A stretch of DNA of 64,000 nucleotides from a virus (lineage: Duplodnaviria > Heunggongvirae > Uroviricota > Caudoviricetes): positions 19,147-83,146 of the IMG/VR virus record IMGVR_UViG_3300020048_000032, one strand, 5' to 3'. This document shows positions 8,007 through 41,390 of this stretch, one piece after another. How positions within the stretch are numbered: position 1 is the first letter of the stretch; each line of letters begins with the position of its first letter. A program made the translations under genes and the position numbers. Under the pieces are notes generated by a model. That model did no database searches, had not been told where the DNA came from, and saw nothing but the letters and a program-made list of their open reading frames with translations.

Positions 8007-8096
8007 TGGCGACAGAGGTGAGATTCGAACTCACGGAACAGTTTTGTTCTCCGGGTTTCAAAGCCGGTGCCTTAAACCAGAATCGGCCACTCTGCC
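8007..8096 (-). tRNA. tRNA-Ser(TGA): tRNA-Ser(TGA), class II with long variable arm, CCA encoded
   Basis: Hand fold: acceptor GGCAGAG/CTCTGTC, anticodon loop TTTGAAA, variable arm AGAACAAAACTGTTCC, T-arm GTGAG-TTCGAAT-CTCAC, 3' CCA. Confidence 0.75.
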
Positions 8097-9845: not shown

Positions 9846-10901
9846 CTACTCCTTATTTTTCATTAAGAACTCTGGACTAACCGCTTTAAATGAACGCACT
9901 AGTCTACCAAAATCATCATATTGTCTAAACACTAGACCCTCTGCTAAGACATCCTTGTTTAGCGTAGATGGATAAGTTGCCATCTCTAAGATGTCATCAA
10001 CTTGTTTATCCTTAATATTAACCCAAGGGAATCTCACCGGGACATTCATAATATACTCATGCCCATTAAAGTTAGGTTGTTCTAGTGCAAGGCTTACACC
10101 ATCAATAATAAAATTAAACATATAAAATCTAATGTCGTCCAAGCCATACTTATTACCTTGAATCTTTGGTCCTATAATCTCACCTTGGATAACAACGGTC
10201 TTTGCACTAGTAGTTCTAGCAAACGACGTTAGGACACCTTTAATATTATATTTTACAGCAATCTTTGCCCAAATATTATCTTCATCATAAATACGATTGT
10301 TTCTAGAACAAATAATAAATTCATTATCCTTAAGTGCATAAGTAGCAGATGAACCATCTAGTTTTTCTGTAGCGGTCCAGCCACCATCTTCTTTAAGAAA
10401 CGCTGTATTATTTTGAATGCGGTCTTCGTCTGTTTTACGAATCCACCCAGGCCAATTAGATGTAACCTTTTTTCTAGAGATAGTCTTCTTGAATAGTTTT
10501 CTAAACCAAAGATATCTCATCATAAAAGAAAACAGTCTGCCTAACAGAGTCTTGCGTACTTCTACTTCTTTGTTATATTGTATGATGCCTAATTCTTTAG
10601 TAACATCATCACCAAGCTTATGCTTCTTCTTTAGGATACTAAGAGGGAACACAATTCCCTCGCTTCTTACCCCGGACATTTTCATAGTTTTAATAATATA
10701 ACGTTTTGATTCAAGAAACTTAAATTCTTCTTTAGGTGGAAGTTGACTATCAATTTCCACGTAAACACATAGGTCACCATTTTGAAACTGCCCCTTGACC
10801 ACAATAACATTCCAACCATCAACTTTAACTTGCTCGATACGGTCTTTACCTTCAATAGGGCGAATGTCACTAACTTGTCTAATTGTTGCTAGCTTTCTCA
10901 T
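9846..10901 (-). CDS. ATP-dependent RNA ligase (Rnl-type nucleotidyltransferase)
   Basis: Ligase motif I KxDG in TEKLDGSSATYAL; N-terminal MRKLATIRQV...VDGWNVIVVKG domain as in phage/bacterial RNA ligases. Confidence 0.6.
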   Translation of the reverse strand: MRKLATIRQVSDIRPIEGKDRIEQVKVDGWNVIVVKGQFQNGDLCVYVEIDSQLPPKEEFKFLESKRYIIKTMKMSGVRSEGIVFPLSILKKKHKLGDDVTKELGIIQYNKEVEVRKTLLGRLFSFMMRYLWFRKLFKKTISRKKVTSNWPGWIRKTDEDRIQNNTAFLKEDGGWTATEKLDGSSATYALKDNEFIICSRNNRIYDEDNIWAKIAVKYNIKGVLTSFARTTSAKTVVIQGEIIGPKIQGNKYGLDDIRFYMFNFIIDGVSLALEQPNFNGHEYIMNVPVRFPWVNIKDKQVDDILEMATYPSTLNKDVLAEGLVFRQYDDFGRLVRSFKAVSPEFLMKNKE

Positions 10902-10912
10902 GTACCCTCCGT

Positions 10913-11815
10913 TTATTTAGTTGTGTCTACAATAGCTGAGCCTGTAGTAATAGTTACCCAGCCCCATTTAATTCTTGCTTCCATTTCCATTTTCTTTAAA
11001 ATCTCTGGAGTGATGGAGAACGATAATAATTTATTTGCGTCAGCAGCTGTTTGAGCTTCGATTAAAGTAACCTTAGCTGCGGCCTCTGCTTCAATGACTT
11101 TAGTGGCTGCTTCAATGCGTGCTTTCTCTTGCGCTTGTAATGCTGTTTCAGCATCTTTTTTAGCGACAGCTTCTCTTACAATAGCACTCTCGATAGCTTC
11201 ACCTGCATCCGTATCTACTAAGGTTAAGTATTTAAAATTAATACCTACTGCGGACAGTTCCTCTTGAAGTCTTACATTTACTTCAGCAATTAAGTCTGCA
11301 CGAGCAACCCCTAGAATATCGATAATGTTATACCTTACCGTAACTTCTGAAATAGTTTTACGTAGTAAGTCTGGGATAAGAACCTCATCTACTGCTTTTA
11401 GAGTTCTAAACCCTTTAAATACAGCACTAGGTTCTGAGACATTGTACTTTAGATTGACTATAATAGTTACATATTGTGAATCTTTAGTTTGAGCATATAA
11501 CCCTTCAACAGTTTTCTCACGGACCTCAGTAGAGATAACATACAAAGTGTCTAATGGGGATTTAATATGCATGCCTTGTTCAATAACAGAGGTCTCACCT
11601 GTAACTTGATTAAACAAGATACCGGTAGAATTAACTGGCACTGAGGCATACATGGCAAATGCAATTAAGAGAAGTGGTAATAACCCTAAGAGAGTCTTTG
11701 CTTGAATCTTAAACGTAAGCTTGTCATTCCCCGCCTTGTCTGTAACAATACGAGCAGAAGCTAAAACTAATCCAATAATGGTAAATACGATAGATAGTAC
11801 TAAAAATAACATTTT
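10913..11815 (-). CDS. SPFH/band-7 (prohibitin/HflKC-like) membrane protein
   Basis: N-terminal TM helix; SPFH-like core; Ala/Glu-rich coiled coil (AQEKARIEAATKVIEAEAAAKVTLIEAQ). Start moved to MLFLVLS (RBS AAAGGAAAT) rather than the upstream in-frame ATG at 11899. Confidence 0.6.
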   Translation of the reverse strand, partial: KMLFLVLSIVFTIIGLVLASARIVTDKAGNDKLTFKIQAKTLLGLLPLLLIAFAMYASVPVNSTGILFNQVTGETSVIEQGMHIKSPLDTLYVISTEVREKTVEGLYAQTKDSQYVTIIVNLKYNVSEPSAVFKGFRTLKAVDEVLIPDLLRKTISEVTVRYNIIDILGVARADLIAEVNVRLQEELSAVGINFKYLTLVDTDAGEAIESAIVREAVAKKDAETALQAQEKARIEAATKVIEAEAAAKVTLIEAQTAADANKLLSFSITPEILKKMEMEARIKWGWVTITTGSAIVDTTK

Positions 11816-12046
11816 GTGATTTCCTTTCAATAGAGATAGCCAGTCTTTCCTTGCCTCGGGAACTGGCTGTGGCATGGTACCATGCGCCCTGTACAACATG
11901 CAGTGTTGTGAGCCGGTCAGTTTACTAACTGACTAAAGAGAGGTTTTTAATCTAACCACCCAACCTCTAAGGTCCCGCTTTTTTGTATTCTACCAGTACG
12001 GGCGTTTACTGAAGCAGTTTTATGACCACGTACTCAGGTCAGCTGA

Positions 12047-12382
12047 TTATTCGATAGACTCAACAACGTCTGGTTGAAGTTGTTTTTTGTTCTGCTTTAG
12101 CCAATATAAAGTATTTCTTAAATCGTTGATACGACCTTCCGCACCACTCAATGCATAAGACTGCTCAAAATTAAATGGTTCCTTCGATATACGAATGAAA
12201 CGCTCAATATCGTTATTTAACGCACTCTCATAACGTTTAATGGTATCGTCTAAACTCTGCAATAACGTCTTACGTGGATAATCTGGATTCTTTTTCATCT
12301 CTGCGCATAAATTGCAATACACCTTCGCATGATTTTCAACTACTATATGTAATTCACGACCACAACTACTACACTTTATCAT
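12047..12382 (-). CDS. hypothetical zinc-ribbon protein
   Basis: CSSCG...CNLC at N-terminus; GGAGGACAAG RBS. Confidence 0.5.
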   Translation of the reverse strand: MIKCSSCGRELHIVVENHAKVYCNLCAEMKKNPDYPRKTLLQSLDDTIKRYESALNNDIERFIRISKEPFNFEQSYALSGAEGRINDLRNTLYWLKQNKKQLQPDVVESIE

Positions 12383-12394
12383 CTTGTCCTCCTG

Positions 12395-12428
12395 ACCACA
12401 AAAATTTAGACCCTCAACGAAGAGGGTC
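12395..12428 (-). terminator. rho-independent terminator (minus strand)
   Basis: Minus strand reads GACCCTC-TTCGTT-GAGGGTC followed by TAAATTTTTG. Confidence 0.55.
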
Positions 12429-12477
12429 GTTTCAATCTAACCGTATGTTAAGTCCAACGAAGGACTAACGGGTAATA

Positions 12478-12618
12478 TTACTTCATCAAGTATACTATCA
12501 ATAATACCCAGCACAAAGTATCTAGGCTTGATAGTGCAATGACCAAAGCAGGATTCGTTCTCATCATATAACTTATACGCTGATTAGCACGGTATACTGC
12601 ATAGTTAACTCGTTTCAT
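12478..12618 (-). CDS. small hydrophobic protein (46 aa), missing from ORF track
   Basis: Strong RBS AAAGAGGACACCAA-ATG; MKRVNYAVYRANQRISYMMRTNPALVIALSSLDTLCWVLLIVYLMK; sits between promoter 12646..12674 and terminator 12395..12428. Confidence 0.45.
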   Translation of the reverse strand: MKRVNYAVYRANQRISYMMRTNPALVIALSSLDTLCWVLLIVYLMK

Positions 12619-12645
12619 TTGGTGTCCTCTTTCTTTAATAAATTC

Positions 12646-12674
12646 ATTATATCATGTATTGCTTATTTTGTAAA
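12646..12674 (-). promoter_or_regulatory. sigma-A-like promoter: -35 TTTACA, 17 nt, -10 TATAAT
   Basis: Conserved cATTATATCATG...TTTGTAAA block on the plus strand. Confidence 0.6.
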
Positions 12675-12714
12675 CATTTATTTTACAAAGTTCTTAATAT
12701 ATTCAATAAATCTT

Positions 12715-13386
12715 TCAGTCATTTTTATTCTCATATCGTTTTTCTATTTTTAACATCTTATTTAACTTCTCAATATCTGTTAACATTGTTGATAAAAACA
12801 TTGGACTTACATTTGACTCATTTTTATATATAGCATACATTCTTTCCGACCGTTCTAATTCATCCTTAAGGATATCTCCGATTATCGACATAAATTGTAC
12901 TTCCTCCTTTGGGCCTCTTGAGTCTAACGGTCCCATATCATGTTGCTTAAATTTACCCTGATATTTATCCCTACGCTGGGTTAACTCCCACATTAATTTA
13001 GTCATTAACACTAGTCCATATGGATTATAATTATCGTGACCCTTCGCAAAATTTATGCATGCTTTGTCTATTACGCTTTTAAATATTTCAATTCTACTAT
13101 TAATGTAGGCTTCATTAAAATAGTATCCGCAGCTTCTATCAATAGCATCTAATATTTTATCATCACAACTAATAGCAAATGCAAAGTCGTCTTCATACAT
13201 ATGGTTCCAGTAATTATCAAAATTAACCTTTGTACCACAGTTAGGACAATACACACCACCATAAGTGCCAGTACCAACTCCAACCCCACCATAAATAGCT
13301 TCTTCGCATGCGGAGAGCATATTTACGTAATCGCAATATCCACAGTAGCCTCCACCGCACAGCTCTTGACCAGTGACTATGCTCAC
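12715..13386 (-). CDS. Cys-rich hypothetical protein
   Basis: ORF track; CGGGYCGYCDY...CPNCG cluster near N-terminus. Confidence 0.5.
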   Translation of the reverse strand: MSIVTGQELCGGGYCGYCDYVNMLSACEEAIYGGVGVGTGTYGGVYCPNCGTKVNFDNYWNHMYEDDFAFAISCDDKILDAIDRSCGYYFNEAYINSRIEIFKSVIDKACINFAKGHDNYNPYGLVLMTKLMWELTQRRDKYQGKFKQHDMGPLDSRGPKEEVQFMSIIGDILKDELERSERMYAIYKNESNVSPMFLSTMLTDIEKLNKMLKIEKRYENKND

Positions 13387-13655
13387 TTAGTGTGCTGACC
13401 TTTCCAGTATGCAAACCAGGTTAACAAATAAACTAGAGTTGTGTGCATTGTAATAATCAGCAAGATGATTAGTATATCGCTTTTAGGTGACTTTAAATAA
13501 GTAGATATCAATATGCCTATAAACAAAAATAAATCAATTAACAATATAGGCCATAACCCTCCATGTACTTTTGTATTTAGCACTTGTGTTATTTTTTGAG
13601 ATACAAAGAAGTACCCCATGCCAATTAATACTAATAGTATATACCCATAATTCAT
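13383..13655 (-). CDS. membrane protein (3 TM helices)
   Basis: ORF track; hydrophobic throughout. Confidence 0.5.
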   Translation of the reverse strand: MNYGYILLVLIGMGYFFVSQKITQVLNTKVHGGLWPILLIDLFLFIGILISTYLKSPKSDILIILLIITMHTTLVYLLTWFAYWKGQHTK

Positions 13656-13681
13656 AATATACCTCCGATGTTAATAATTAA

Positions 13682-13788
13682 GCCGCCCCAGGGGAATTGA
13701 ACCCACAGACCCTACTATACCACTCCGCCACTAAGGCGGTGCGGAATCGAACCGCTAGTAGACGATACCATCGGGGCGGATTTGGTCA
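13682..13788 (-). ncRNA. tRNA-like segment I could not fold cleanly (two T-arm-like motifs; possible 98-nt long tRNA or two degenerate tRNAs)
   Basis: GCGG-TTCGATT-CCGC and GGG-TTCAATT-CCC motifs; ends CCGCCCC...GGGGCGG could pair as an acceptor stem. Confidence 0.3.
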
Positions 13789-13862
13789 TGCTACGCAGAA
13801 TTGAACTGCGATTGGTAGGATGAAAACCTACTGTCCTTCCATTAAACGATAGCACGATGAGA
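13789..13862 (-). tRNA. tRNA-Glu(TTC): tRNA-Glu(TTC), CCA encoded
   Basis: Hand fold: acceptor CGTGCTA/TAGCATG, D-stem GTTT/GGAC, anticodon arm GTAGG-TTTTCAT-CCTAC, T-arm CGCAG-TTCAATT-CTGCG, A-CCA. Confidence 0.7.
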
Positions 13863-13917
13863 ATGTCTTTTCGTGAAGGCTAGGCATACAGAACCTTAAT
13901 TACATTATATCACAATT

Positions 13918-14718
13918 TTATTCTTTTGTAAACTCTTCTTCTATACTTTTTTTAACTATCTGTTTAATTAGGTCATTTACTTTATAGAGAGTAGTACCTT
14001 CAATTGGATAAAGGACTTCCTGTTCTTGCTTTTCCCTCTTCAACTTTTCAATTAAATATTTTGCAGCTTCTTCTGCCTCGTCTAAAGTTAACTTACCTAC
14101 CTTAATGTCCAGCATACTATCACGCGCTGGGCCTTCTGAAAACCACAGGCTGTTTGTAAAGCTTATTCCCATTACTAGTCTATCCATCATGTGAGATAAT
14201 CTTGCAATGTGATGTAGCTGCTTTGGGTCATAGCCAAACTTTTCTATTTTCTCGAGCGTGGCTGGATACGGATGCTTCAGGGCCTTCTGTTTCTCTAAGG
14301 CCATACCATATATACATTTTATTAAAAGTGCCTTACGGTCGCTTACAATGTCCGGTAGGAAGTCTCTAATTTGTTTCCATTCATCTGAATAATCAGTAAC
14401 GAAAATATTACTGGCTAGGAGTTCCAAGTAACTCGGATTCGCTTTAGCCAGTAACTCTTCTAACAACCTAACATCTTTGATTTCTACTTGGCCCCAATCT
14501 GTCTTAATAACTTTTGAGACCATTTTATTAGTATAAATATCATCGAAGTCTGGCAAGACAAAAGCCTTGCAATCAATATCAGAGGAGTAGTCTGGACTGT
14601 AGATATCTAAATTATAGTTCTGAGACCCGTGTAAAACTATTACGAATACTTTGTACCCGTCTGCTTTTAAGTCACATGTGACCTTGGCTAGAACGCCTAT
14701 AATTTCTTTCTTATTCAT
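13918..14718 (-). CDS. Pol-beta superfamily nucleotidyltransferase (RNA-repair-associated type; possible CCA/tRNA nucleotidyltransferase role)
   Basis: Motif LHGSQNYNLDIYSPDYSSDIDCKAF (hG[GS]...DxD); class-2 promoter upstream. Confidence 0.45.
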   Translation of the reverse strand: MNKKEIIGVLAKVTCDLKADGYKVFVIVLHGSQNYNLDIYSPDYSSDIDCKAFVLPDFDDIYTNKMVSKVIKTDWGQVEIKDVRLLEELLAKANPSYLELLASNIFVTDYSDEWKQIRDFLPDIVSDRKALLIKCIYGMALEKQKALKHPYPATLEKIEKFGYDPKQLHHIARLSHMMDRLVMGISFTNSLWFSEGPARDSMLDIKVGKLTLDEAEEAAKYLIEKLKREKQEQEVLYPIEGTTLYKVNDLIKQIVKKSIEEEFTKE

Positions 14719-14769
14719 TGATACTCCTCCTCTGTTGTTATTAATTATCTCTTCCCTATATAAATAAAT

Positions 14770-14803
14770 ACTACATAAAAAGAATCTAAGTTAATTTACT
14801 TTG
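14770..14803 (-). promoter_or_regulatory. promoter class 2 (TAACTT, 15 nt, AG, TATTTATTTA)
   Basis: Aligned copy. Confidence 0.5.
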
Positions 14804-15335
14804 TTCCTTTTTTGTCTGTACGTTTTCTAAACAAATATGCAGCAATAATAATTAGTACTAAAATCCAAAACGGAATTGTGCCTATCATAAACCACATCCA
14901 ACCTCCACCACAGAAGGTACAGACAAGTTTATCAACGTAAACAATTTTTTCGACAACTTTATCCACATAAATAATTTTATCTACTAAAATTTCTTTAGTA
15001 ATAATTTTATCAACATAAACAGTTTTAACTACCTCTTTGTCTACATATACAATTTTATCTACATAGATGTTTTTAATTACTTCTTTGTCGACATAGATAA
15101 GCTTGTCCACATAAATGGTCTTAATGACTTCTTTATCTATATATACAATCTTGTCTACATAGATAATTTTTGGTTCACATGTACATTTTGGGTCATCATG
15201 ATGGTTACTGCCATCATTATGTACATTTTCATTATGGTTACAATTATCATTGTCATGGGCACTAACATTTGCGGCCGGTGCAAACAATAACAGCACAACT
15301 ACAGAAAGCAGTAGTATACTAACTAATTTTTTCAT
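14796..15335 (-). CDS. secreted, membrane-anchored tandem-repeat protein (signal peptide; His/Asp/Asn-rich segment; about 9 YVDK repeats; C-terminal TM helix)
   Basis: MKKLVSILLLSVVVLLLFAPAANVSA signal; HDNDNCNHNENVHNDGSNHHDD; repeats YVDKIVYIDKEVIKTI; the DNA carries 48-nt tandem repeats at about 14935-15175; C-terminal WMWFMIGTIPFWILVLIIIAAYLFRKR. Confidence 0.6.
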   Translation of the reverse strand: MKKLVSILLLSVVVLLLFAPAANVSAHDNDNCNHNENVHNDGSNHHDDPKCTCEPKIIYVDKIVYIDKEVIKTIYVDKLIYVDKEVIKNIYVDKIVYVDKEVVKTVYVDKIITKEILVDKIIYVDKVVEKIVYVDKLVCTFCGGGWMWFMIGTIPFWILVLIIIAAYLFRKRTDKKGTK

Positions 15336-15434
15336 TATGAGTCCTCCTTTTGGACAGAAGGTCGGTTACACTATTAGCTTCATATTGTTCAAGTGTCCAT
15401 ATACAAACAATACTTCATCGCGTCCAATTTATAC

Positions 15435-15713
15435 TTAGCTTTCGCTAGAGTATTTTGCTAACTTCTTTAAATCTGATATCTTCCAATTCTTATTCAGTCT
15501 TAATCCCGCTTTATGATAAGTAGAGTAGCGACGCATTGTTTTAGTATTTGTCTTCTCTGTGCAATAGGAACAAGAGCAATGAATCTTGTTCTTACTTAGT
15601 CTACCATCGTCTCTCCACCATGGATAATCATTTGACCAAATCTTAGTTAGAATGAATTTCTTCTTTTTAATATGGCGTTCTCTTTCGTAGATAATTTTTT
15701 CTCTAGTGTGCAT
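15435..15713 (-). CDS. basic hypothetical protein
   Basis: ORF track. Confidence 0.45.
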   Translation of the reverse strand: MHTREKIIYERERHIKKKKFILTKIWSNDYPWWRDDGRLSKNKIHCSCSYCTEKTNTKTMRRYSTYHKAGLRLNKNWKISDLKKLAKYSSES

Positions 15714-15743
15714 AGTTCCTCCATATATTATATTGGCACCCCA

Positions 15744-16331
15744 CTACTGTTTTGTCTGTACCTTGCCTGCTCTTGGGCCACGGATAACACCTTTTTGAGC
15801 AGCAGATATTCTTGCTCGGTGTTCTTCTGAAAATGGAGGAAGTTTTCGCCCTGTTAATGCTTTTGATAGGTTCTTTTTATGCACTTCCGACCTAGGTGCT
15901 CGCTTAACCCCGGTATGAGCAATTGACATCTTCTCTTTTGTTTTATCTGAATGACATTTGCCTTTCATCCAGGGTACTTGACCTTTATTAGATAAAGATG
16001 CTTTTAATTTAGATTCTTCTGAATGAGCGGCATACTCTCCACCTGTTGTAGAATTATATCCAAACTCATAATTAGTAGAATTATGTTCTGCAATCAGCTT
16101 AATTTCAAGTGCACAGGCATCTTCTTTTGTTAAGCCAGATGCTATAATCTCATGCTGTACATTTTCCCAACTATACTTCTGGATAGCCCTAGCTAAATTT
16201 GGCTGACTAACCTCTTTGTATTTATTACCAAAAGTTCCCCACCTGCTTGTTGGTATTTTTGCCCCAGTTAATCCTATATAAACTTTTCCATTAGGAAATG
16301 TATGTTTATAGACTACATAAGATTTAATCAT
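15744..16331 (-). CDS. GIY-YIG homing endonuclease with NUMOD3-like DNA-binding repeats
   Basis: YVVYKHTFPNGKVYIGLT (GIY...YIG); repeats GKCHSDKTKEKMSIAHTG, RSEVHKKNLSKALTG, FSEEHRARISAAQKG. Confidence 0.75.
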   Translation of the reverse strand: MIKSYVVYKHTFPNGKVYIGLTGAKIPTSRWGTFGNKYKEVSQPNLARAIQKYSWENVQHEIIASGLTKEDACALEIKLIAEHNSTNYEFGYNSTTGGEYAAHSEESKLKASLSNKGQVPWMKGKCHSDKTKEKMSIAHTGVKRAPRSEVHKKNLSKALTGRKLPPFSEEHRARISAAQKGVIRGPRAGKVQTKQ

Positions 16332-16794
16332 AATTTACCTCCAAATTTTCTTTCCTAAACAATATTTATATTAGATACTTATGTTTAATTGGTCCGCTCA
16401 GAAGAACTTGAATCCTCAACCTTCTCGTTCGAAGCGAGCTGCACTATTCAATTGTGCTATAGGCGTATAGAAGTCCCCCTAACGCGCAACACTATCCCTT
16501 TGATATAAGGTCGTGTCAGATGCACCAGAAGCAGAGTTCTTTCATCTGCCGAAGGACTATATTGAATCTGGTTACCGCTTGCCTTGGTAATATCGTTTAT
16601 CCAAGACGCTCTAAATCTTAGTATGTCGCCAAACATACCATTACTGTCAATTAGTGGAGTAGCACATTTTTCAATTGTTAGTGGTCAACCGAAATCGTCA
16701 CTTGTTTTATGTCTGGACGCCAGATGGCAGAGTACTCCCAACTCTTCCCGATAGTTTTAATGGCACTATCTACGCCCATAGATTTATTTGGTGG

Positions 16795-16830
16795 AGCTGA
16801 CGAGAATCGAACTCGTGTTAGTTACTGTGC
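16795..16830 (-). ncRNA. tRNA-Ala/tmRNA-like 3' terminal module (T-arm CGAG-TTCGATT-CTCG, then CAGCTCC-A-CCA) with no canonical 5' partner nearby
   Basis: Minus strand reads ...ACGAGTTCGATTCTCGTCAGCTCCACCA. Confidence 0.35.
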
Positions 16831-17232
16831 TGGCTCTATACATTCGTACTTACAGCACTACTAGTATAGACACCGTGCGTTGTAACTCTGACCATGACAA
16901 CCCCATAAGTTGAGCAGTTAGATAGCATGCTCAGGCTTTCTCACCCTGGTAATTCGCAATACCAGAATCGGTAAGTAAGTATCTTCGTCAAGACTTACTT
17001 ATCTTATGGTTTCTCGTCGACTGCAACCATCAAACTCCGACTGCCCCTTGACCATATACTTTAACTAGGGTAAGTGCCTGTAAGTACTGTTGGATTCGAA
17101 CCAACGGCTCAGCCATTACCAATCAACGATAACTCGTTAACTCGTAATGATGAATACCGATATGTGCCTCGGTATAACGGCTAACTGTCTAGCCAGTTAT
17201 ATTTATAGTGCATACTGGTTAGCACATAGTTT

Positions 17233-17360
17233 TCTTCCAGTAAGGATTTGCACCTTACACGATTGTCGACCAAACACAATAACTCCATATACGTTTATTG
17301 TGAGTCACCAGTATGAACCATCGTTCAAGCCTGTGTGTCTACCTATTCCACCATGGAAGA
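17233..17360 (-). ncRNA. tRNA-like structured RNA element, copy E2
   Basis: Closing stem TCTTCCA/TGGAAGA (compensatory relative to E1); GTG-GAATAGGTAGA-CAC; hairpin GTAAGG-TGCAAAT-CCTTAC. Confidence 0.5.
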
Positions 17361-17529
17361 ATCTTAGCTCCCACTTACTGGTAGGGTACACCATATCTAG
17401 TAGGTTGGCTATGTCCCTACATCTCTTTAAGACCACTGTATTCTTCGATGTATGCGTTGAAAGTATTCTCCGTAATAAGCGTTGTTGATTCGTGGTGTGG
17501 CAGCTGCCTGTTCTGCCCTTAGATAAATA

Positions 17530-17643
17530 TTTCTTGGCAAGGAATCGTCACCTTGCACTGCTGTCCTAATTGGTGTTCACCGTCCCAGCACACCAGCAAA
17601 ATTGAACCAAACCTGTTGCGTCTCACTTTTCCGCCACAAGAAA
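17530..17643 (-). ncRNA. tRNA-like structured RNA element, copy E3 (divergent)
   Basis: Closing stem TTTCTTG/CAAGAAA; GCG-GAAAAGTGAGA-CGC; hairpin GCAAGG-TGACGATT-CCTTGC. Confidence 0.4.
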
Positions 17644-19191
17644 TATTAATGTAGGCGTTCCAATCCTACTTCCGTCGCTGGCTTACTCAATCCTATAAGA
17701 GTTACCTTGGCGTTATCGACGAACCTTTCGGGTGTTTCCCAACTCCTGGATGGTTATCCGATTCTGTCGCATACTGGCATATGCATTGAACTTTGTTACA
17801 TACTCTCCATATGTAGTCCAACTAGAGACTCTTTTTTCGTAAAGAAAGAGCCTTAAACGTTAAAATGGTCTGGATTATTTATCACTATTCTAGCATGGCG
17901 CTAGCGCCATGCCGCCATACAGGGGCGGAGGGAGCCAATGTCGAACCTTACTCTATCCATCATTCGAGTTCGTGGCATCGGGAATTTTAGCTCTACCCGT
18001 AAGAGTACTAGTTATAGGTTTATCGTCTCCAGACCGACTAGATAGCATACTATCATCTGACCTAGTTTCCGTCTCATAGGCTGACAGTGAATACTTACGT
18101 TTCACATGAAAGGATTGCTCCCTTATTCTGGTTGATTACGAGCCATAACTCGCTTTCGCCCGCGCATTTACGAGCCCTAGGTTGCTGGTTTAGCGACACG
18201 GCTTGTCGGATAGTCTGTGGATTGTGGCCACATTCTCATCATGATGGTGTATGCACTCTCCCTTTAAACTCAAGCTTCATGAGTACCATCACTAATACCG
18301 TTCTCTTTGGCACACGGTAACACTGTGCGATTGGCAATACCGCCTATTTCACTGTCGTCGGGTAAGCAACGTATAGTTCTTAAGGAACCACAAATTAAAT
18401 CGCGATTAATCTGCAGTCCCTCATCCCGCTCATACGTCAGGATTGCCACAGCGAACTATAAAGTCTTATCTTCTAGTGGTATCTATACGAAGATATCGTG
18501 GTGTAGATTTTGTTTACGTGTTCCTCGCGAGTCTACGCTTTTTTGTCCTACAAACACTAGCCTTATTCTGTAGCTTAACATAATACGCTTCTTAGGGCGT
18601 CAAATTTGCTCCCTTTTCTGGAAGACTTTCGCTCGTTTTTGAGACCATACTCACATGGTTAGTGAGAACTAATAGACCTTGCGAGGTTATAGTATTGGCC
18701 ATAGAGTGAGCATTTTTATAACTTGCTCAGGTTAACACATTTTATATATACCCCGTACTAGATAGAGGAGCTGCCCTTGATGTTACTCCAGGGAAACAGC
18801 AGTGTATTGGTAGTTTTTAGACGTGTCCGGTCTTGTATATTACCACATAGTGGTTTATACCAATTTAGGTACCAACTGTCGGACTTGCACCGACATCCCC
18901 CGTGGTCATCGCCCATATTGAGTGGACGACTACTGACAGGGCCTCTGCTAATTGATAAGTAGGTTGGTATAATGATGGTTCCGCCTGCGGTTTTACGCAT
19001 ACTGTAGCGACGCCTATTGAAGGTCGTTAGTCTTCTGTCTCTGGATTAACAGTCCAGTATGTTACTTTACACTATTTAGGTTTTTCAAGTGGCGAAACCG
19101 TGAAGTAGTAAATGGATTTTGTCGAGAGGTTTGCTCCGGAGCTACTCAGTTTTGTTCCATTTCACGCGGCCATTATAACGACCGCATATTA

Positions 19192-19845
19192 TTAGTCTAC
19201 TTTTTCGAATACATCTAAAACATATCCTAAAGCATCTTTCTTACGGGTATTCCTTAATAGGATACTCTCATCTATTTTAATCTTTCCATTCTCATCGGTT
19301 ACTACATCATTGCGACCTGTAACAGTAAATAAATATTCTCTAGCATACCATTCTTCCAAGAAATGATAATTCTCTTTTGGCAACCTGCCTACAATATTTG
19401 CAGGCGTATGCTCTGGAACAGGTTTATAATCTACTACAGCAATTGATACGTTTAAGTGATTCCTACTGTCCAGCTTAGCACCATGAATATGACCATGGAT
19501 ATTTAATACTGAGTCATTAACCTTGATGGGTTCGTGACTAAGCACAATGCGTTTAGTAAAATAAATAGGTCTATCATGCACTTCTGTAAAATAAGTATAG
19601 TACTCATTAATAGGCCTGTTGTCATGATTTCCCATAATAAGAATTTTCCTGCCATTCAATTTGCGAACATTTTCTGCTTCGCCTATATCACCTAGGATAT
19701 AGAGTACATCATTTAATTTAACTACTTTATTAATTTGTTCTATAATAAAATTGTCATGTTCTTGAATTGTTGAAAACTGCGTTCTCTCGAACTTTAAAAT
19801 ATTAGCATGACCGAAGTGAAGGTCAGAGATAAAGTATGTGTTCAT
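19192..19845 (-). CDS. calcineurin-like metallophosphoesterase (candidate end-healing phosphoesterase for RNA repair)
   Basis: Motifs SDLHFGH, LGDIGE, MGNHDN, HGHIHG. Confidence 0.7.
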   Translation of the reverse strand: MNTYFISDLHFGHANILKFERTQFSTIQEHDNFIIEQINKVVKLNDVLYILGDIGEAENVRKLNGRKILIMGNHDNRPINEYYTYFTEVHDRPIYFTKRIVLSHEPIKVNDSVLNIHGHIHGAKLDSRNHLNVSIAVVDYKPVPEHTPANIVGRLPKENYHFLEEWYAREYLFTVTGRNDVVTDENGKIKIDESILLRNTRKKDALGYVLDVFEKVD

Positions 19846-19867
19846 GTGACCTCCTATAGGTGTTCTG

Positions 19868-21058
19868 TTAGTCTTGTGCTTTATAATTAAATAACGTTTT
19901 AAGATGTGTTACTACTTCATATTGCTCAGACACCAACTTCTTAATTTCTTCCGCTGGTTTATATGCATCTGGTGCTTCATCCAAAGTACTTTCATTTACA
20001 GAAGCTGACCAAATGTCTTTCATAGTTTCTTTGAAGTCTTCTACGTTCAAGGTTTTCTTAGCAGTAGACCTGCTCATGGTTCTACCCGCACCATGGGGCG
20101 CAGAATTGTTCCAGGTGAGGTTTTCTTTACCCTGGCATATTAACGTGCCGTCTCTCATATTAAGAGGAACCAGGAATAACCCCGAGGCTCTAATAGCACC
20201 CTTACGAAGAATCATTTCATTGAAATCAATATAGTTATGTACTGATTCAATTTTTTGTCCGACTATCCAACCCATTTTATTAAAAATAGTTTCAGCAATC
20301 ATTCTTCTATTTTTGTAAGCAAACATCTGCGCAATCTCCAAATCATTAAGGTAAGCACCCATTTCAGTTCCTGTTAAAAACGCTAAGTCTTTACTTTGGT
20401 TTAATTCATCTTCGTGAGCTTCCTTATAAGCTTTAACTTCTCTTTCAATTTCTTGAGCTTTGCCTTCTACTTTTAATCTTGCGATTAATGCCTGTACTCC
20501 AGAATTCTTAACTAAGTCTTCTGCTTTATCTTGATGATGACGCGCTACCTGTAAGCCCAGGTTTCTCGAACCTGTATGGATAATCAAGTAATGATTTGTC
20601 CCATCCGATTCAACAGAAATAAAGTGGTTTCCTCCTCCAAGAGTACCCATAGAACATTTAATTCTACTTGCTGTCTTCGCGGGCAAAGGAGTAGATAATC
20701 CAGCTAATAAGAATCCTACATCAAAATTCTCTACTTCGTGTACCTGCATTCCTGATGGTATGTAATTGTTTATTACGGATTGTAGCTGTTCAAAATCAAT
20801 ATCCTGGGCAGGAATCTTATATGCAACTACACCACAGCCAATATCAACACCAATTAAATTTGGTACAATACGGTCTGTAATAGTCATAGTTGTTCCAATA
20901 ACACAACCAGCTCCTGCATGGACATCTGGCATAATAACAATATTTGAATTCAAAGAAGCAGGGTGACTAATAAGTCTTGCAATTTGTGCAATGGCCTCTT
21001 GCTCAATGTTATCAGTTGTAACTAATGCATTAGCGTATTTTCCTTTTAGTTCAAACAT
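19868..21058 (-). CDS. rtcB: RtcB-family RNA ligase (3'-phosphate/5'-hydroxyl)
   Basis: 396 aa; GGNHF motif, metal-binding His/Cys pattern, C-terminal NSAPHGAGR. Confidence 0.85.
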   Translation of the reverse strand: MFELKGKYANALVTTDNIEQEAIAQIARLISHPASLNSNIVIMPDVHAGAGCVIGTTMTITDRIVPNLIGVDIGCGVVAYKIPAQDIDFEQLQSVINNYIPSGMQVHEVENFDVGFLLAGLSTPLPAKTASRIKCSMGTLGGGNHFISVESDGTNHYLIIHTGSRNLGLQVARHHQDKAEDLVKNSGVQALIARLKVEGKAQEIEREVKAYKEAHEDELNQSKDLAFLTGTEMGAYLNDLEIAQMFAYKNRRMIAETIFNKMGWIVGQKIESVHNYIDFNEMILRKGAIRASGLFLVPLNMRDGTLICQGKENLTWNNSAPHGAGRTMSRSTAKKTLNVEDFKETMKDIWSASVNESTLDEAPDAYKPAEEIKKLVSEQYEVVTHLKTLFNYKAQD

Positions 21059-21073
21059 GTTGCCCTCTTTCTT

Positions 21074-21544
21074 TTATAGACACTTTCTCAAGTCACTAAT
21101 TAATATACAGTCTCCCTCTTTAATAAATGTGAACAGACTATCCTTAAAATAAAGGGGTTGCACTCTTTCATTTTCTTTAAGTAGACAAAGTGTAATATAT
21201 CCACCAAAAATAGTATTTACATTCCTTCTTGCAATACAATACCCGCTTGGAGTATCAAATGATTTAATAATTACCTTCTCGTCTTCTGTTAAGGTATATC
21301 TAGGCAGCAGCCTAATCTCCTCATTCATAAGTAAGCTTACTGATTCCCAATATGAAACATAAGGACCATCCCAGTTATAATTTACCCTAATAGTACCAAT
21401 ATCCCCAATTTCTAAAATGGTTATAATGCCGTGGTCTCCGCATTCGAATGGTACATTAAGTGTTATTCCAAGAGAATCTATAAAGTCTTTTGTTGTCATC
21501 AGTCGCATATGTGGACTCCTTTGTTTTTTAAGTTTAATACACAT
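21074..21544 (-). CDS. hypothetical protein, paralog family A
   Basis: MTTKDFIDSLGI...YTLTEDEKVIIKS...ISDLRKCL. Confidence 0.55.
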   Translation of the reverse strand: MCIKLKKQRSPHMRLMTTKDFIDSLGITLNVPFECGDHGIITILEIGDIGTIRVNYNWDGPYVSYWESVSLLMNEEIRLLPRYTLTEDEKVIIKSFDTPSGYCIARRNVNTIFGGYITLCLLKENERVQPLYFKDSLFTFIKEGDCILISDLRKCL

Positions 21545-21873
21545 TCATTTAAATATTGAGTAGTATGTTCACAGTATATTGGATGCCAGTATGGTATCAC
21601 TAATGCGGTGCTTAAGCTAAGCATGGGTGCGGTCTTGCCGCGATAACGACTATCTTCCCAAACAGGGTCTACATTATAACCACGTCGTTCCATTTCTTGC
21701 ATAACTAATCTATGGTATCCAACTAAGCAACCATAATCATGTTCAAATACGTAATTAACTGTTGCATGAGGTTTACCCCATCCATTTCCACGAAGTGCAC
21801 AGCATTCACGATGCTGACCTAACAGCTGTTGTCGTGGTAACTTAGTAATTAAATCTTGGTGCCAAAGTCTCAT
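21499..21873 (-). CDS. pyrimidine-dimer DNA glycosylase (T4 endonuclease V / DenV-like)
   Basis: N-terminus [29 protein letters not shown] parallels T4 DenV [45 protein letters not shown] segment also matches. Confidence 0.5.
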   Translation of the reverse strand: [124 protein letters not shown]

Positions 21874-22259
21874 TTACTTGGCTCCAATATATCTATAATG
21901 GTACGCGCATAATTAAGTAGACGCTCCTCAGTCAATGAATAAACCTCATGATTTTTAACCTCAAAGCAAATCCACTTAGGTGCTATGTAAGTACTCGACA
22001 GACCATTAATCCCATAACACCATCGCAAGGCATCAAGGTCTTTTTGTGAAGTAATATAATACAACCAAGTAGAATCTGCAGCTCCGTTTAAATAGAGTTC
22101 ATGCTGTTTCATTTTATTGCAAACATCAAACGCATTCCCATTAAGTTCAGTTTCGCGTTCTTCTGCTTCTTCTCTTGTATTCCATTGGCTTTTGTCACTG
22201 GCCTCAAACTTAGTTATAGTTGTTACCACGGTGTGTTTTACTTCAGTAATTTGTTTCAT
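21870..22259 (-). CDS. hypothetical protein
   Basis: ORF track; consensus sigma-A-like promoter 25 nt upstream. Confidence 0.55.
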   Translation of the reverse strand: MKQITEVKHTVVTTITKFEASDKSQWNTREEAEERETELNGNAFDVCNKMKQHELYLNGAADSTWLYYITSQKDLDALRWCYGINGLSSTYIAPKWICFEVKNHEVYSLTEERLLNYARTIIDILEPSK

Positions 22260-22284
22260 CTTGGTACCTTATCTTTCTAAAAAC

Positions 22285-22313
22285 ATTATATCATATTTTA
22301 GTTACTTTGTAAA
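22285..22313 (-). promoter_or_regulatory. sigma-A-like promoter: TTTACA, 17 nt, TATAAT
   Basis: Conserved block. Confidence 0.6.
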
Positions 22314-22329
22314 TAACTATTTAATAAAT

Positions 22330-22403
22330 TGGCGGGAACACTAGGAATTGAACCCAGGTCAGTGAGGTTGGAGCTCACGATTTTGCCACTAAACTATATT
22401 CCC
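22330..22403 (-). tRNA. tRNA-Trp(CCA): tRNA-Trp(CCA)
   Basis: Hand fold: acceptor GGGAATA/TGTTCCC, anticodon arm GTGAG-CTCCAAC-CTCAC, T-arm CTGGG-TTCAATT-CCTAG, G-CCA. Confidence 0.8.
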
Positions 22404-22404
22404 A

Positions 22405-22479
22405 TGGTTGCTCGGAAGGGATTCGAACCCTCGACCTCCGGGGTATGAACCCGACACGCTACCGCTGCGCTACCCAGCT
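22405..22479 (-). tRNA. tRNA-fMet(CAT): tRNA-Met(CAT), initiator-like (three G:C pairs in anticodon stem; 1:72 mismatch)
   Basis: D-arm GCGC-AGCGGTA-GCGT; anticodon arm TCGGG-TTCATAC-CCCGG; T-arm GAGGG-TTCGAAT-CCCTT; ...CCGAGCA-A-CCA; acceptor has an A1 x A72 mismatch. Confidence 0.6.
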
Positions 22480-22646
22480 ATAAATTAAATTGTCGGAAAG
22501 GTTAGATTGGTTACTAACACTCGTTGCTATTCCCTACTCCCCCGTAGTGGGCATATCTTCGATATACCTGGTTCACCTCGGCAGAGGGTTATATTCACAA
22601 CATCCCTCCCATGAGGGTGCGCTTGATTTATCGCTACTTTCCGATA

Positions 22647-22722
22647 TGGTGCCCTCTCGGTGAATCGAACACCGATTTGATGCTTACAAGGCATCTGTAA
22701 TAGCCTTTATACATAAGAGGGC
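22647..22722 (-). tRNA. tRNA-Thr(TGT): tRNA-Thr(TGT)
   Basis: Acceptor GCCCTCT/AGAGGGC; D-stem TGTA/TACA; anticodon arm GATGC-CTTGTAA-GCATC; T-arm CGGTG-TTCGATT-CACCG; A-CCA. Confidence 0.75.
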
Positions 22723-22727
22723 ATTTA

Positions 22728-23147
22728 CTACATATGCTTATCTGAATATTTTTTACGACCTACTCTACCATTTCCCATGTTTAGACTCCGGTAAGTTGAA
22801 GTTAAACTGTGACAATTAGGACACAACAATGTTAGATTATCCTCTGACATATTGTCATGATGTCCATCGATGTGCTCTACTTCCAAAGGTATTCTACCTG
22901 TAGTATGATTTATCTGATGCCACCCACACTGTGCACATTGACTGTCATACTTCTCGAATAGGTATCTCCTAACATGGCTAGATATTGAATATTCACCTGC
23001 TGCACCACTGACCGCTCCGATTTTCCACTTATCAATAAAACTCTTATATTGATAATTAAGTTGACACTTTTGTGAGCAGTATTTAGTTGCTCTGTGTTTG
23101 TATATTAATTCTTTTCCACAATGTATACAATGCTTTTCTTTCCTCAT
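22728..23147 (-). CDS. HNH homing endonuclease with N-terminal zinc ribbon
   Basis: CIHCGK...CSQKC; EVEHIDGHHDN...CPNCH (HNH motif); sits inside the tRNA cluster. Confidence 0.7.
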   Translation of the reverse strand: MRKEKHCIHCGKELIYKHRATKYCSQKCQLNYQYKSFIDKWKIGAVSGAAGEYSISSHVRRYLFEKYDSQCAQCGWHQINHTTGRIPLEVEHIDGHHDNMSEDNLTLLCPNCHSLTSTYRSLNMGNGRVGRKKYSDKHM

Positions 23148-23174
23148 TACTCATCCTTTCTAAGGTGTTCGGAT

Positions 23175-23203
23175 GTAAGCCCCAGATGAGGGGGCTTACT
23201 TTT
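23175..23203 (+). terminator. strong GC stem-loop followed by a T-run on the plus strand
   Basis: GTAAGCCCC-agatgag-GGGGCTTAC-TTTT. Confidence 0.35.
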
Positions 23204-23381
23204 ACCTATATAATACTTGCAAATATTATACAGAACCATTAAATCTTATTGCCCTCAGTAAGTGTGCATTGTTAAGAGGCATCTGAGGTACTGTCAATAC
23301 TGAGCAACCAGCGGGACTTTAACCCACATTCTCCACACAATCACACGTGTGCCATTCTAATTAAAATATGGTTGCATAAGT

Positions 23382-23460
23382 TGGACGAGGAAGGAGTTGA
23401 ACCTTCATACCTAAACTTGTTAACTGAGCACTCAACGCTTTACCCTTAAGCTACTCGTCC
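23382..23460 (-). ncRNA. tRNA-like gene with aberrant anticodon arm (pseudo-tRNA or non-canonical tRNA)
   Basis: Perfect acceptor GGACGAG/CTCGTCC, D-arm GCTT-AAGGGTA-AAGC and T-arm GAAGG-TTCAACT-CCTTC, but I found no 5-bp/7-nt anticodon stem-loop. Confidence 0.35.
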
Positions 23461-23590
23461 ATATGATGCCTGTTGTTTAAACAGGGAGGCATCACCCTAT
23501 GCCACAATTGTTACTGACGGAATGTGGGAAACCAATGTCATGAATCATCAGTTTAATTAGGAGATGAAACTGATAAAGAACCTTAAAATT

Positions 23591-23677
23591 TGGTGAGTTA
23601 GGTAGGATTCGAACCTACGAACCCGTTCAGGGGACAGAGTTACAGTCTGCCTGCTTTAACCACTTGCATACTAACCC
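23591..23677 (-). tRNA. tRNA-Tyr(GTA): tRNA-Tyr(GTA), class II
   Basis: Acceptor GGGTTAG/CTAACTC; anticodon arm GCAGA-CTGTAAC-TCTGT; variable arm hairpin CCC-TGAAC-GGG; T-arm GTAGG-TTCGAAT-CCTAC; A-CCA. Confidence 0.75.
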
Positions 23678-23678
23678 A

Positions 23679-23755
23679 TGGTGGACCATGTAGGACTTGA
23701 ACCTACAACCAACCGGTTATGAGCCGGGAGCTCTGCCAATTGAGCTAATGGTCCA
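23679..23755 (-). tRNA. tRNA-Met/Ile(CAT): tRNA-Met(CAT) elongator type, or tRNA-Ile(CAT, lysidine)
   Basis: Acceptor GGACCAT/ATGGTCC; D-arm GCTC-AATTGGCA-GAGC; anticodon loop CTCATAA; T-arm GTAGG-TTCAAGT-CCTAC; A-CCA. Confidence 0.7.
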
Positions 23756-23944
23756 GATGAGGCATTTGATAACTGAGTGCCTCGACTCAGGACCTCTCGG
23801 TCACCAAGTATCAAAAGTAATGCAGGAGTATGTAAACGGTGAGTAATTCCGTTAACACCAATAAGTGCAACTTTAGGTAAGTTGCCAACCCTTCTAAGGA
23901 GGTAATCAAGAATATGTAAACAGTTATCACTCTGTTAACATTAA

Positions 23945-24150
23945 ATGTTGGGAACTGCTGGACTCAAACCAGCAACGATAGTTTTATAGCGCGCATCTTC
24001 CTATCACCAGGGTCTAATCCCCAGCTCGTATTTCAATTCCGACAAGTTCCCATAGATGAGGGGTTTGTAGGAGTTGAACCTACCGTAGTCTGCCGACTAC
24101 CGACCGCAGTATAGTGGAGTTGAACCACTCAGCACGTGCAGAAGCTGCCA
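23945..24150 (-). ncRNA. three further T-arm-containing tRNA-like segments that I could not resolve into canonical cloverleafs
   Basis: Minus strand motifs GCTGG-TTTGAGT-CCAGC+AGTTCCC, AGTGG-TTCAACT-CCACT+ATACTGC, GTAGG-TTCAACT-CCTAC+AAACCCC. Confidence 0.3.
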
Positions 24151-41174: not shown

Positions 41175-41390
41175 CTACTCATTTGAGTCCTCTGATGTAA
41201 ATATAATCATAATCTTAGGATAAGGTTTATCTTCCCAGTCCAGCTCATCAATTTGTATTACACTTATTAGATTAAAGTTAATATTATGATTAATATACTC
41301 GCGATACTTGTATTCTGACTTATCATTACTATTCAACCAGTTGAGAGCATCATCTATATCATCAAATACTATCTTCTTGTAAGCTTTCAT
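41175..41390 (-). CDS. hypothetical protein
   Basis: ORF track. Confidence 0.45.
   Translation of the reverse strand: MKAYKKIVFDDIDDALNWLNSNDKSEYKYREYINHNINFNLISVIQIDELDWEDKPYPKIMIIFTSEDSNE

Follow-up and report, generated by a model that had tools for sequence, protein, structure and literature searches.

The region presented here spans positions 9846-24150 of a 64,000-nucleotide stretch of phage DNA, referred to below as the window (positions 19,147 to 83,146 of the IMG/VR virus record IMGVR_UViG_3300020048_000032, Caudoviricetes). In and around this region, 16 kb contain two RNA ligases whose chemistries are opposite, a nucleotidyltransferase of the repair type, a phosphoesterase and some nine tRNA genes. 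We propose that the region serves the supply of tRNAs and the repair of RNA breaks, and that it would keep translation running when the RNases of host defense systems or toxins cut tRNAs. We assign to this proposal a probability of roughly 55%. Such a counter-defense function is plausible for the present genes and has already been published for other phages (T4, the jumbo-phage survey of 2021 and the RlaP biochemistry of 2025). The concept of phage RNA repair directed against tRNA-cutting defense is therefore in the literature, and this phage is a new example of it.

RNA repair enzymes

The four enzyme genes are the following:

9846-10901, minus strand: Rnl5-family ATP-dependent RNA ligase, 351 residues (PF21189, PF09414, similarity to NgrRnl, PDB code 5cot)
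13918-14718, minus strand: divergent RlaP-like Pol-beta nucleotidyltransferase, 266 residues (phrog_388, catalytic triad, predicted fold)
19192-19845, minus strand: metallophosphoesterase (MPE), 217 residues (phrog_547, PDB code 1xm7, five MPE motifs)
19868-21058, minus strand: RtcB RNA ligase, 396 residues (PF01139, phrog_1075, catalytic residues)

All four open reading frames (ORFs) lie on the minus strand exactly where an earlier reading of the DNA (the original prediction) had placed them. They belong to the superfamilies named there, and none was assigned to an unrelated family.

RtcB enzymes join a 3'-phosphate or 2',3'-cyclic phosphate to a 5'-OH in a GTP- and Mn-dependent reaction. The ORF at 19868-21058, the exact limits predicted for RtcB, matches the Pfam family PF01139 with 185.4 bits (cut-off 27, E-value 2.7e-54) and phrog_1075 with an E-value of 1e-121. 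The reference protein, P. horikoshii RtcB, has the metal ligands D95, C98, H203, H234 and H329 and the GMP-accepting histidine H404 in its own numbering. Alignment to this protein shows that the metal ligands and the GMP-histidine are kept. The residues in the phage protein are D45/H47, D72/C75 (in DIGCG), N144/H145 (GNHF), H161 (HTGSR) and H274 (HNY), and the histidine corresponding to the GMP acceptor is H322 in PHGAGR. The catalytic positions are invariant across 18 homologues. Judged by its sequence, the enzyme is intact with all catalytic residues present, and ligation activity is predicted.

The ATP-dependent ligase consists of an N-terminal OB domain of the PHA02142 type (PF21189, residues 4-87) and an RNA ligase domain (PF09414, residues 175-341 of 351), with no C-terminal domain. 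It aligns end to end with NgrRnl of Naegleria gruberi with an E-value of 2e-34. In this alignment Lys180 of motif I (KLDG) is found opposite the nucleophile Lys170 of NgrRnl, and motifs III, IV and V (GEIIG, EGLVF and FKAVS) are also present. Because of the two-domain arrangement, the full-length alignment and the KLDG lysine, the protein is predicted to be a nick-sealing ligase of the Rnl5 type, represented by NgrRnl and DraRnl. The score against the NCBIfam model TIGR02306 (DRB0094) is 124.2 bits, under the trusted cut-off of 151, indicating a divergent member. An Rnl-type ATP-dependent ligase with a KxDG motif had been expected at 9846-10901, and family, motif and position were found as expected, but the type is Rnl5 and not T4 Rnl1. 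An anticodon-loop ligase of the T4 Rnl1 type was rejected on the basis of the Rnl5 architecture, which is without the tRNA-specific C-terminal domain. The characterized Rnl5 members seal 3'-OH/5'-phosphate nicks in duplexes, in which the 3'-OH strand must be RNA (PMC4408790). By family evidence, both ligation chemistries are encoded as originally proposed: RtcB for 3'-phosphate or 2',3'-cyclic phosphate with 5'-OH ends, and Rnl5 for 3'-OH with 5'-phosphate ends.

The metallophosphoesterase gene starts 22 nt downstream of RtcB. The protein matches phrog_547 with an E-value of 5e-44 and the structure 1xm7 with an E-value of 1e-11, while its Metallophos_2 score of 24.6 bits is slightly below the cut-off of 27. 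All five MPE motifs are found (DLHFGH, GDIGE, GNHD, SHEP and GHIHG), and the predicted active site is complete. The enzyme is a candidate for the healing of 3'-ends, a role that it may have in view of its position beside RtcB both in the window and in the relative L007 described below. The claim of a metallophosphoesterase adjoining RtcB thus holds to the nucleotide, together with its family and motifs. Two phosphoesterases had been claimed within 9846-24150, but only this one was found; the other MPE-like ORFs are located at 6240-7598 and 41387-42460. The former is a phrog_284 exonuclease with degenerate MPE motifs.

The nucleotidyltransferase matches the phrog_388 family, annotated as nucleotidyltransferase, with an E-value of 8e-18. 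Among the Pfam families that had been named for the region, PF01139 and PF09414 were readily found, but PF10127 (RlaP) reached only 14.1 bits for this ORF, where the cut-off is 23. PF10127 matches were obtained in 11 of the 26 aligned homologues (E-value of 0.01 or lower, the best being 1e-6), and among the 2474 homologues of the protein those with 39-43% identity carry precomputed PF10127 matches. The residues G31-S32, D47xD49 and D82, which form the G-S element and the three catalytic Asp residues of the Pol-beta superfamily, are invariant among the aligned homologues. In the AlphaFold2 (AF2) model (predicted local distance difference test score, pLDDT, 94.5), a nucleotidyltransferase core with a β-sheet at the N-terminus is followed by an all-helical C-terminal half. 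The nearest solved folds in a search of the PDB are ANT(4')/KNTase, 3c18 and Hailong HalB; the PfRlaP structure was not among the matches returned. The protein is treated here as a divergent relative of RlaP, related to PF10127. RlaP adds one or two nucleoside monophosphates to damaged RNA 3'-OH ends, acts on RNA only, and restores the aminoacylation of over-trimmed tRNA (PMC12776372).

In the window, the distance of the nucleotidyltransferase gene is 3 kb to Rnl5 and 5 kb to RtcB, and other homologues adjoin genes of IF3 or of ribonucleotide reductase and thioredoxin instead. In L011 (6790-7308) and L012 (6969-7316) the RlaP-like homologue is directly followed by a phage-encoded gene for translation initiation factor IF3.

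tRNA and tRNA-like genes

The tRNA genes were called with ARAGORN, at default and relaxed settings, and with Rfam:

8007-8096, minus strand: tRNA-Ser(UGA), CCA encoded (ARAGORN and Rfam)
13783-13856, minus strand: tRNA-Glu(UUC), CCA encoded (ARAGORN and Rfam)
16390-16466, minus strand: tRNA-Arg(UCG)-like gene with two acceptor-stem mismatches, CCA encoded (Rfam tRNA model, 45.5 bits; ARAGORN relaxed)
22330-22479, minus strand: tRNA-Trp(CCA) and initiator-like tRNA-Met(CAU) (ARAGORN and Rfam)
22647-22722, minus strand: tRNA-Thr(UGU) (ARAGORN and Rfam)
23302-23375 and 23380-23461, minus strand: two tRNA-like genes of non-canonical form, lacking CCA and having anticodon loops of 8 nt (Rfam, 33.8 and 48.6 bits; ARAGORN; folds)
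23591-23754, minus strand: tRNA-Tyr(GUA) and a second tRNA(CAU), Met or Ile2 (ARAGORN and Rfam)
about 13683-13780, about 17092, 23950-24052 and 24060-24150, minus strand: further tRNA-like elements with T-arm motifs and no normal anticodon arm (T-loop motif scan, folds)

Every canonical tRNA gene encodes its CCA end; with eight canonical genes and the tRNA-Arg-like one, there are eight or nine CCA-encoding tRNA genes in all. The predicted genes for the Ser, Glu, Trp, fMet (here initiator-like), Thr, Tyr and Met/Ile tRNAs were all confirmed, but tRNA-Ser lies outside 9846-24150. In the initiator-like tRNA-Met, positions 1 and 72 are mismatched and the anticodon stem contains GGG/CCC. As to the second tRNA(CAU), ATA makes up 30% of the Ile codons in the window ORFs.

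Several non-canonical tRNA-like genes had also been predicted, and these are found at 23302-23375 and 23380-23461, together with the further T-arm-bearing elements. In the second of the two genes, the acceptor stem measures 8 bp and the variable arm is long. T-loop-like motifs are enriched on the minus strand, with 21 found and 8.25 expected, and none of 100 shuffles reached 21. One T-arm element, located directly after tRNA-Glu, contains two T-arm-like hairpins within a CCGCCCC/GGGGCGG stem; in another, an insertion of about 60 nt accompanies an acceptor-like stem of 8 bp. A weak match to abiF RNA (31 bits, gathering score 37, E-value 0.004) is located just downstream of the tRNA array, at 23252-23288 on the minus strand.

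Proposed mechanism

In the proposed mechanism, the phage tRNAs would replace depleted host tRNA species. Phage tRNAs evade tRNA-targeting defenses and are documented as replacements of cleaved host tRNAs (PMC10264068, PMC11555353). RtcB would directly reseal breaks with 2',3'-cyclic phosphate or 3'-phosphate and 5'-OH ends, as left by metal-independent anticodon nucleases. Rnl5 would seal the 3'-OH/5'-phosphate nicks in base-paired RNA that are left by metal-dependent tRNases of the Toprim/OLD type, with no healing required. The Toprim tRNase P2-OLD leaves 5'-phosphate and 3'-OH ends, and 5'-phosphate ligases seal singly nicked tRNA without end healing (PMC12445682). The RlaP-like enzyme would extend a trimmed 3'-OH end again by one or two nucleotides, as in damage of the RloC type, and Rnl5 would then seal the extended product. 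The phosphoesterase may first strip a cyclic or 3'-phosphate to give a 3'-OH, a step suggested by gene position only. In jumbo phages, tRNAs, RtcB, ATP-dependent ligases, phosphoesterases and RlaP have been described together as counter-defense (PMC7824862, section 3.4.9).

Gene organization and conservation in relatives

The genes form a loose neighborhood and not an operon, in which only RtcB and the phosphoesterase are near-contiguous. The original prediction of a gene set clustered and interleaved with tRNA genes stands insofar as the four enzymes are found within 11.2 kb, but these belong to at least three predicted transcription units and unrelated genes lie between them. Near-identical promoter-like sites, TTTACA-17-TGnTATAAT, are located at 22285-22313, 13904-13932 and 12646-12674 on the minus strand, each ahead of one gene group; they are consensus matches only, and promoter-like sites overall are no more numerous than expected by chance. 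The group behind the site at 22285-22313 consists of ORF 21870-22259, denV, ORF 21074-21544, RtcB and the phosphoesterase. The other groups are tRNA-Glu, and ORF 12047-12382 with the SPFH gene and Rnl5. The denV-like gene (21499-21873, minus strand; PF03013, E-value 2e-25) codes for a pyrimidine-dimer DNA glycosylase resembling that of T4.

No second phosphoesterase, 2H phosphoesterase, archease or kinase was detected with Pfam, PHROG and NCBIfam, and no P-loop by motif scan, in the ORFs at 8101, 9314, 12047, 12715, 13383, 15435, 21074, 21870 and 24192.

Single-protein queries of IMG/VR with RtcB and Rnl5 found no close relatives, and RtcB loci were instead retrieved by a profile query. This gave 80 viral loci with RtcB identities of 42-48%, which were compared over 10 kb on either side. 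At least one tRNA gene is found near RtcB in 44 of the 80 loci and at least three in 21. An RlaP-like gene occurs in two, in one of which (L059) it is directly upstream of RtcB, while the phosphoesterase and Rnl5 occur in none.

Among six closer relatives, RtcB is located near tRNA genes in five. In the nearest relative, L007, whose RtcB is 79% identical, a phosphoesterase with 80% identity directly follows RtcB and tRNA genes flank both. In L006 (RtcB 57% identical), SPFH is followed by a small ORF, then by the RlaP-like gene, RtcB and 18 tRNAs. L005, L008 and L009 have RtcB with 5-15 tRNAs and none of the other enzymes, and L010 also has none; Rnl5 and the phosphoesterase were not found in L005, L006 or L008-L010. 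In the Bacillus phages Grass and Bcp1 and in phage f2b1, RtcB is present without such neighbors. Rnl5-like ligases are found in 334 phage records, chiefly of Pseudomonas and Aeromonas phages, with none from Bacillus phages. In Microbacterium phage A3Wally such a ligase directly follows an array of 17 tRNAs. No homology was detected between the SPFH protein of the window and the "lipoprotein" near the ligase in phage PAK_P5, and therefore no linkage of this kind is claimed.

From this distribution over the relatives and the 80 loci, the recurrent links are those between RtcB and tRNAs, between RlaP and RtcB and, in one case, between Rnl5 and tRNAs. The full set of four enzymes is particular to this phage and is not a conserved cassette. 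A methyltransferase of the Methyltransf_23 type follows RtcB directly or 3 kb downstream in L008 (11271-12089) and L009 (14135-14932), and may recall Hen1 of the bacterial Pnkp-Hen1 RNA repair system by analogy.

Possible independent function of the genes

It is necessary to consider that these may be independent accessory genes, brought together by chance, with no coordinated pathway of tRNA repair. RtcB would then repair RNA generally, whether rRNA, mRNA or tRNA. Rnl5, the phosphoesterase and denV would serve the repair or replication of DNA or RNA-DNA hybrids, for example at nicks with a ribonucleotide 3'-OH, and the tRNAs would help to read the codons that an AT-rich phage uses often. We regard this explanation as unlikely. 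A number of observations weigh against coordinated tRNA repair.

The four enzyme genes are split by at least three of the promoter-like sites, and between them are found the SPFH/Band-7 gene, GIY-YIG and HNH homing endonucleases and a riboswitch-controlled membrane protein. However, the occurrence of four RNA-end enzymes within 11 kb would be improbable by chance: rough arithmetic for four such genes in 11.2 kb of 148 kb gives about 0.002, from 4 x (11.2/148)^3, or about 0.01 if only about half of the genome is eligible. The lack of conservation, with Rnl5 and the phosphoesterase missing from all 80 RtcB loci and from the five relatives named above, and the solitary RtcB of Grass, Bcp1 and f2b1 also fit independent genes, but the adjacency of RlaP and RtcB recurs in L006 and L059, and so does the proximity of tRNAs to RtcB and to Rnl5.

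DenV, a DNA repair enzyme, is located within the predicted transcription unit of RtcB. The phosphoesterase family phrog_547 is found in about 2000 phage records, mostly without RtcB, and none of the 80 viral loci has a member of it beside RtcB; the sole NCBIfam match of the protein is a weak one to the DNA-damage protein PdeM. NgrRnl needs only the 3'-OH strand as RNA, a role in DNA repair has been discussed for it, and Rnl5 ligases could act on RNA-DNA hybrids (PMC4408790). RlaP, in contrast, acts on RNA only, and its 3'-OH product suits 5'-phosphate ligases but is incompatible with RtcB (PMC12776372). This incompatibility counts against the proposed repair role; the fit to 5'-phosphate ligases would provide a rationale for carrying Rnl5 besides RtcB.

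No polynucleotide 5'-kinase is found within the 64-kb window, where the only two P-loop ORFs are both in other contexts. Heal-and-seal repair of the T4 kind is therefore incomplete, and the Rnl5 route could not use 5'-OH ends with the genes seen. Finally, the tRNA set also fits the supplementation of A-ending codons, since UCA, GAA, ACA and ATA are favored.

The RNA-rich stretch downstream of the phosphoesterase

The non-coding RNAs that follow the phosphoesterase are a less expected part of the region than the repair genes. The features are the following:

16470-19190, minus strand: 2.7 kb with few or no ORFs and much non-coding RNA, bounded by the phosphoesterase and GIY-YIG genes
16789-16904, minus strand: transfer-messenger RNA (tmRNA)-like RNA of 116 nt, tRNA-like domain only (37.8 bits, gathering score 47, E-value 6e-13)
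17392-17527, minus strand: skipping-rope RNA, RF02924 (51.9 bits, gathering score 36.7)
17649-17861, minus strand: conserved structured RNA of about 210 nt (covariation across five copies)
18868-18956 and 19011-19081, minus strand: weak tRNA-like elements within the ORF-poor stretch

The tmRNA-like RNA folds into an acceptor stem (GGGGUUG/CAGCUCC) with G3:U70, a long helix and a T-arm, and has an encoded ACCA end. About 35 nt are found in place of the mRNA-like and pseudoknot part, and ARAGORN gave no tmRNA call at this position. A short frame, GCA CGG UGU CUA UAC UAG UAG, is present inside this RNA. The skipping-rope RNA, which has a 54-nt insertion in one hairpin, belongs to a class without an assigned function (PMC5737381).

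Copies of the 210-nt RNA are found in L005 (13945-14163), L014 (1965-2171), L015 (1-190, minus strand) and L016 (868-1085). The RNA is 80-84% identical over the five sources, which are the window, L005 and three metagenome contigs, while the RtcB of L005 is only 62% identical. The alignment contains indels of 5 and 11 nt, and compensatory changes are observed at 10 of 59 predicted pairs, with five sequences only. No Rfam family was matched at an E-value of 10 or lower, and a covariance model run over 1.7 Mb of RtcB-bearing loci found nothing beyond the five training copies. The element thus appears, from its sequence and covariation, to be a new RNA family that matches no family in Rfam. A resemblance by eye to the CR-I and CR-V segments of RNase P RNA was considered and is not supported.

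In sliding-window folding, the mean z-score of the stretch is -0.94, compared with -0.14 to -0.91 for coding controls; this difference is weak and is therefore not used as evidence. A different RNA is found in the tRNA array of L005 (18469-18651, plus strand). It is a 183-nt RNA similar to class B RNase P (57.8 bits, gathering score 97, E-value 3e-15), which keeps CR-I (GAGGAAAGUCCA), the AGAAACCCAAAUU..GGUAGGGG segment and CR-V (AACAGAAGGUGGCUUAC), with the specificity domain missing. No match to this RNA is present in the window. Taken with the RNA set described above, this element may mean that the phage lineage contributes RNAs of its own to tRNA processing and translation rescue, which we consider doubtful.

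The RtcB-phosphoesterase unit could form one module with these RNAs, namely the tmRNA-like, skipping-rope and 210-nt RNAs and several tRNA-like elements that are without an anticodon or have twin T-arms. The RNAs would then serve RNA repair or host tRNases as substrates, scaffolds or decoys; we consider such a module doubtful. It is also rather improbable that the enzymes act mainly on the unusual RNAs of the phage itself, with RtcB and Rnl5 maturing them by cutting and rejoining, or with the RNAs used as scaffolds or decoys. Such an arrangement would be analogous to the bacterial rsr-Y RNA-rtcBA operons, but Pfam and NCBIfam searches revealed neither a splicing endonuclease nor a Ro/TROVE protein or an archease. 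No strong terminator-like site is located between the phosphoesterase and the RNA stretch, and the unit may read into the tmRNA-like, skipping-rope and covarying 210-nt RNAs; however, the 210-nt RNA has no copy in any other RtcB locus that was searched, and proximity is the only link between the enzymes and the RNAs. Likewise, the tRNA-like genes with insertions or 8-nt anticodon loops and the extra T-arm elements at 13683-13780 and 23950-24150 might be such targets, although the canonical tRNAs need no ligation.

It is extremely improbable that the Pol-beta enzyme adds or repairs CCA in order to mature or replenish the 3'-ends of the phage tRNAs: the original prediction was right about a repair-type enzyme at 13918-14718, the catalytic triad is intact, and RlaP is able to add nucleotides at RNA 3'-OH ends, but there is no PolyA_pol (PF01743) match at an E-value of 1 or lower, the predicted fold is nearest to ANT(4')/KNTase and HalB and not to class II CCA enzymes, CCA is already encoded in all canonical tRNA genes here, and RlaP adds just 1-2 nucleotides with no CCA specificity reported (PMC12776372).

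Comparison with known systems

The tRNA repair proposed here has a close parallel in the RNA repair and tRNA systems of jumbo phages (Iyer et al. 2021, PMC7824862), with the same component list and the same proposed purpose of countering attack on tRNA. However, the genome considered here, of about 148 kb, is too small for a jumbo phage, and its lineage has no close cultured relative. The ligase is of the Rnl5 type, while the majority there are Rnl1 and Rnl2; no kinase is seen in the window, and the genes are dispersed among unrelated ones. The account of Iyer et al. reportedly builds on Burroughs and Aravind (2016).

The Pnkp and Rnl1 enzymes of T4, which repair tRNA-Lys cleaved by PrrC, are similar in being a phage answer to anticodon nucleases that uses an ATP-dependent ligase for 3'-OH/5'-phosphate ends. 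In contrast to T4, there is no Pnkp or other P-loop kinase of this kind in the window, the phosphoesterase is a binuclear MPE and not of the acyl-phosphatase type, and the ligase has an N-terminal OB domain in place of a tRNA-specific C-terminal domain. RtcB would give a healing-independent route that T4 lacks.

The co-occurrence of RtcB with an enzyme of the RlaP family is shared with the bacterial operons, rtcB-rlaP-rtcA of Pseudomonas (PMC12776372) and rtcBA of E. coli and Salmonella (PMC7790460), and an adjacency like that in Pseudomonas is seen in the relatives L006 and L059. However, neither the RtcA cyclase nor the RtcR regulator is present here, the context is that of a phage with tRNA arrays, and the RlaP-like gene, whose product is very divergent with 14 bits on PF10127, is separated from RtcB by 5 kb. 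With NgrRnl and DraRnl (PMC4408790), the ligase shares full-length similarity, the same two-domain layout and motifs I (KLDG), III, IV and V, but the identity is only about 30-35% and the TIGR02306 score is below the trusted cut-off.

Genome, host and neighboring genes

All credible genes of the window are on the minus strand, and the G+C content is about 36%. The RtcB sequence of the window was found on a metagenomic contig of 148,196 bp, so that the genome of this uncultivated phage is about 148 kb. A DNA search found no close relative among cultured phages. The large terminase shares 42% identity with its counterpart in Bacillus phage vB_BceM-HSE3, and the closest matches of RtcB and of the nucleotidyltransferase are proteins of phages of the Bacillus group. 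Because of these three similarities and the presence of a cyclic di-GMP (c-di-GMP)-II riboswitch, the host of the phage is likely a member of Bacillota. The surroundings of 9846-24150 are an accessory-gene region of the phage, with the following additional features:

15352-15434, minus strand: c-di-GMP-II riboswitch aptamer (59.8 bits, compared with 53.5)
15744-16331 and 22728-23147, minus strand: free-standing GIY-YIG/NUMOD3 and HNH homing endonuclease genes (profile matches)

The riboswitch ends 16 nt ahead of the start codon of ORF 14796-15335. In the product of this ORF, a signal peptide and a transmembrane segment at the C-terminus are combined with YVDK repeats and regions rich in His and Asp. 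The next gene, 77 nt further on and with no strong terminator in between, is the RlaP-like one, which may therefore be co-regulated with the ORF. A c-di-GMP-I riboswitch is found in the relative L006 at 2321-2408.

The two homing endonuclease genes are embedded among the tRNAs and other RNAs, and the Seg genes of T4 likewise lie in the T4 tRNA region. The homing endonuclease SegB is reported in a paper of 2026 to be linked to the amplification of anti-defense tRNA loci (PMC13096335). Outside the region studied, a group I intron-like match is present at 52574-52855 on the minus strand (41.1 bits, gathering score 50, E-value 5e-7).

Biological implications

If the proposed role in tRNA supply and repair is correct, this phage would cover both classes of tRNA damage, one with RtcB and the other with Rnl5, as well as nucleotide excision with the RlaP-like enzyme, in addition to carrying its own tRNAs. 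It would then be a natural test case for the channeling of RlaP products to a compatible ligase, which is an open problem according to PMC12776372, and for the in vivo role of the Rnl5 ligases, which is open according to PMC4408790. It would likewise be a test case for the role of the RNA-rich stretch, including the new covarying RNA family.

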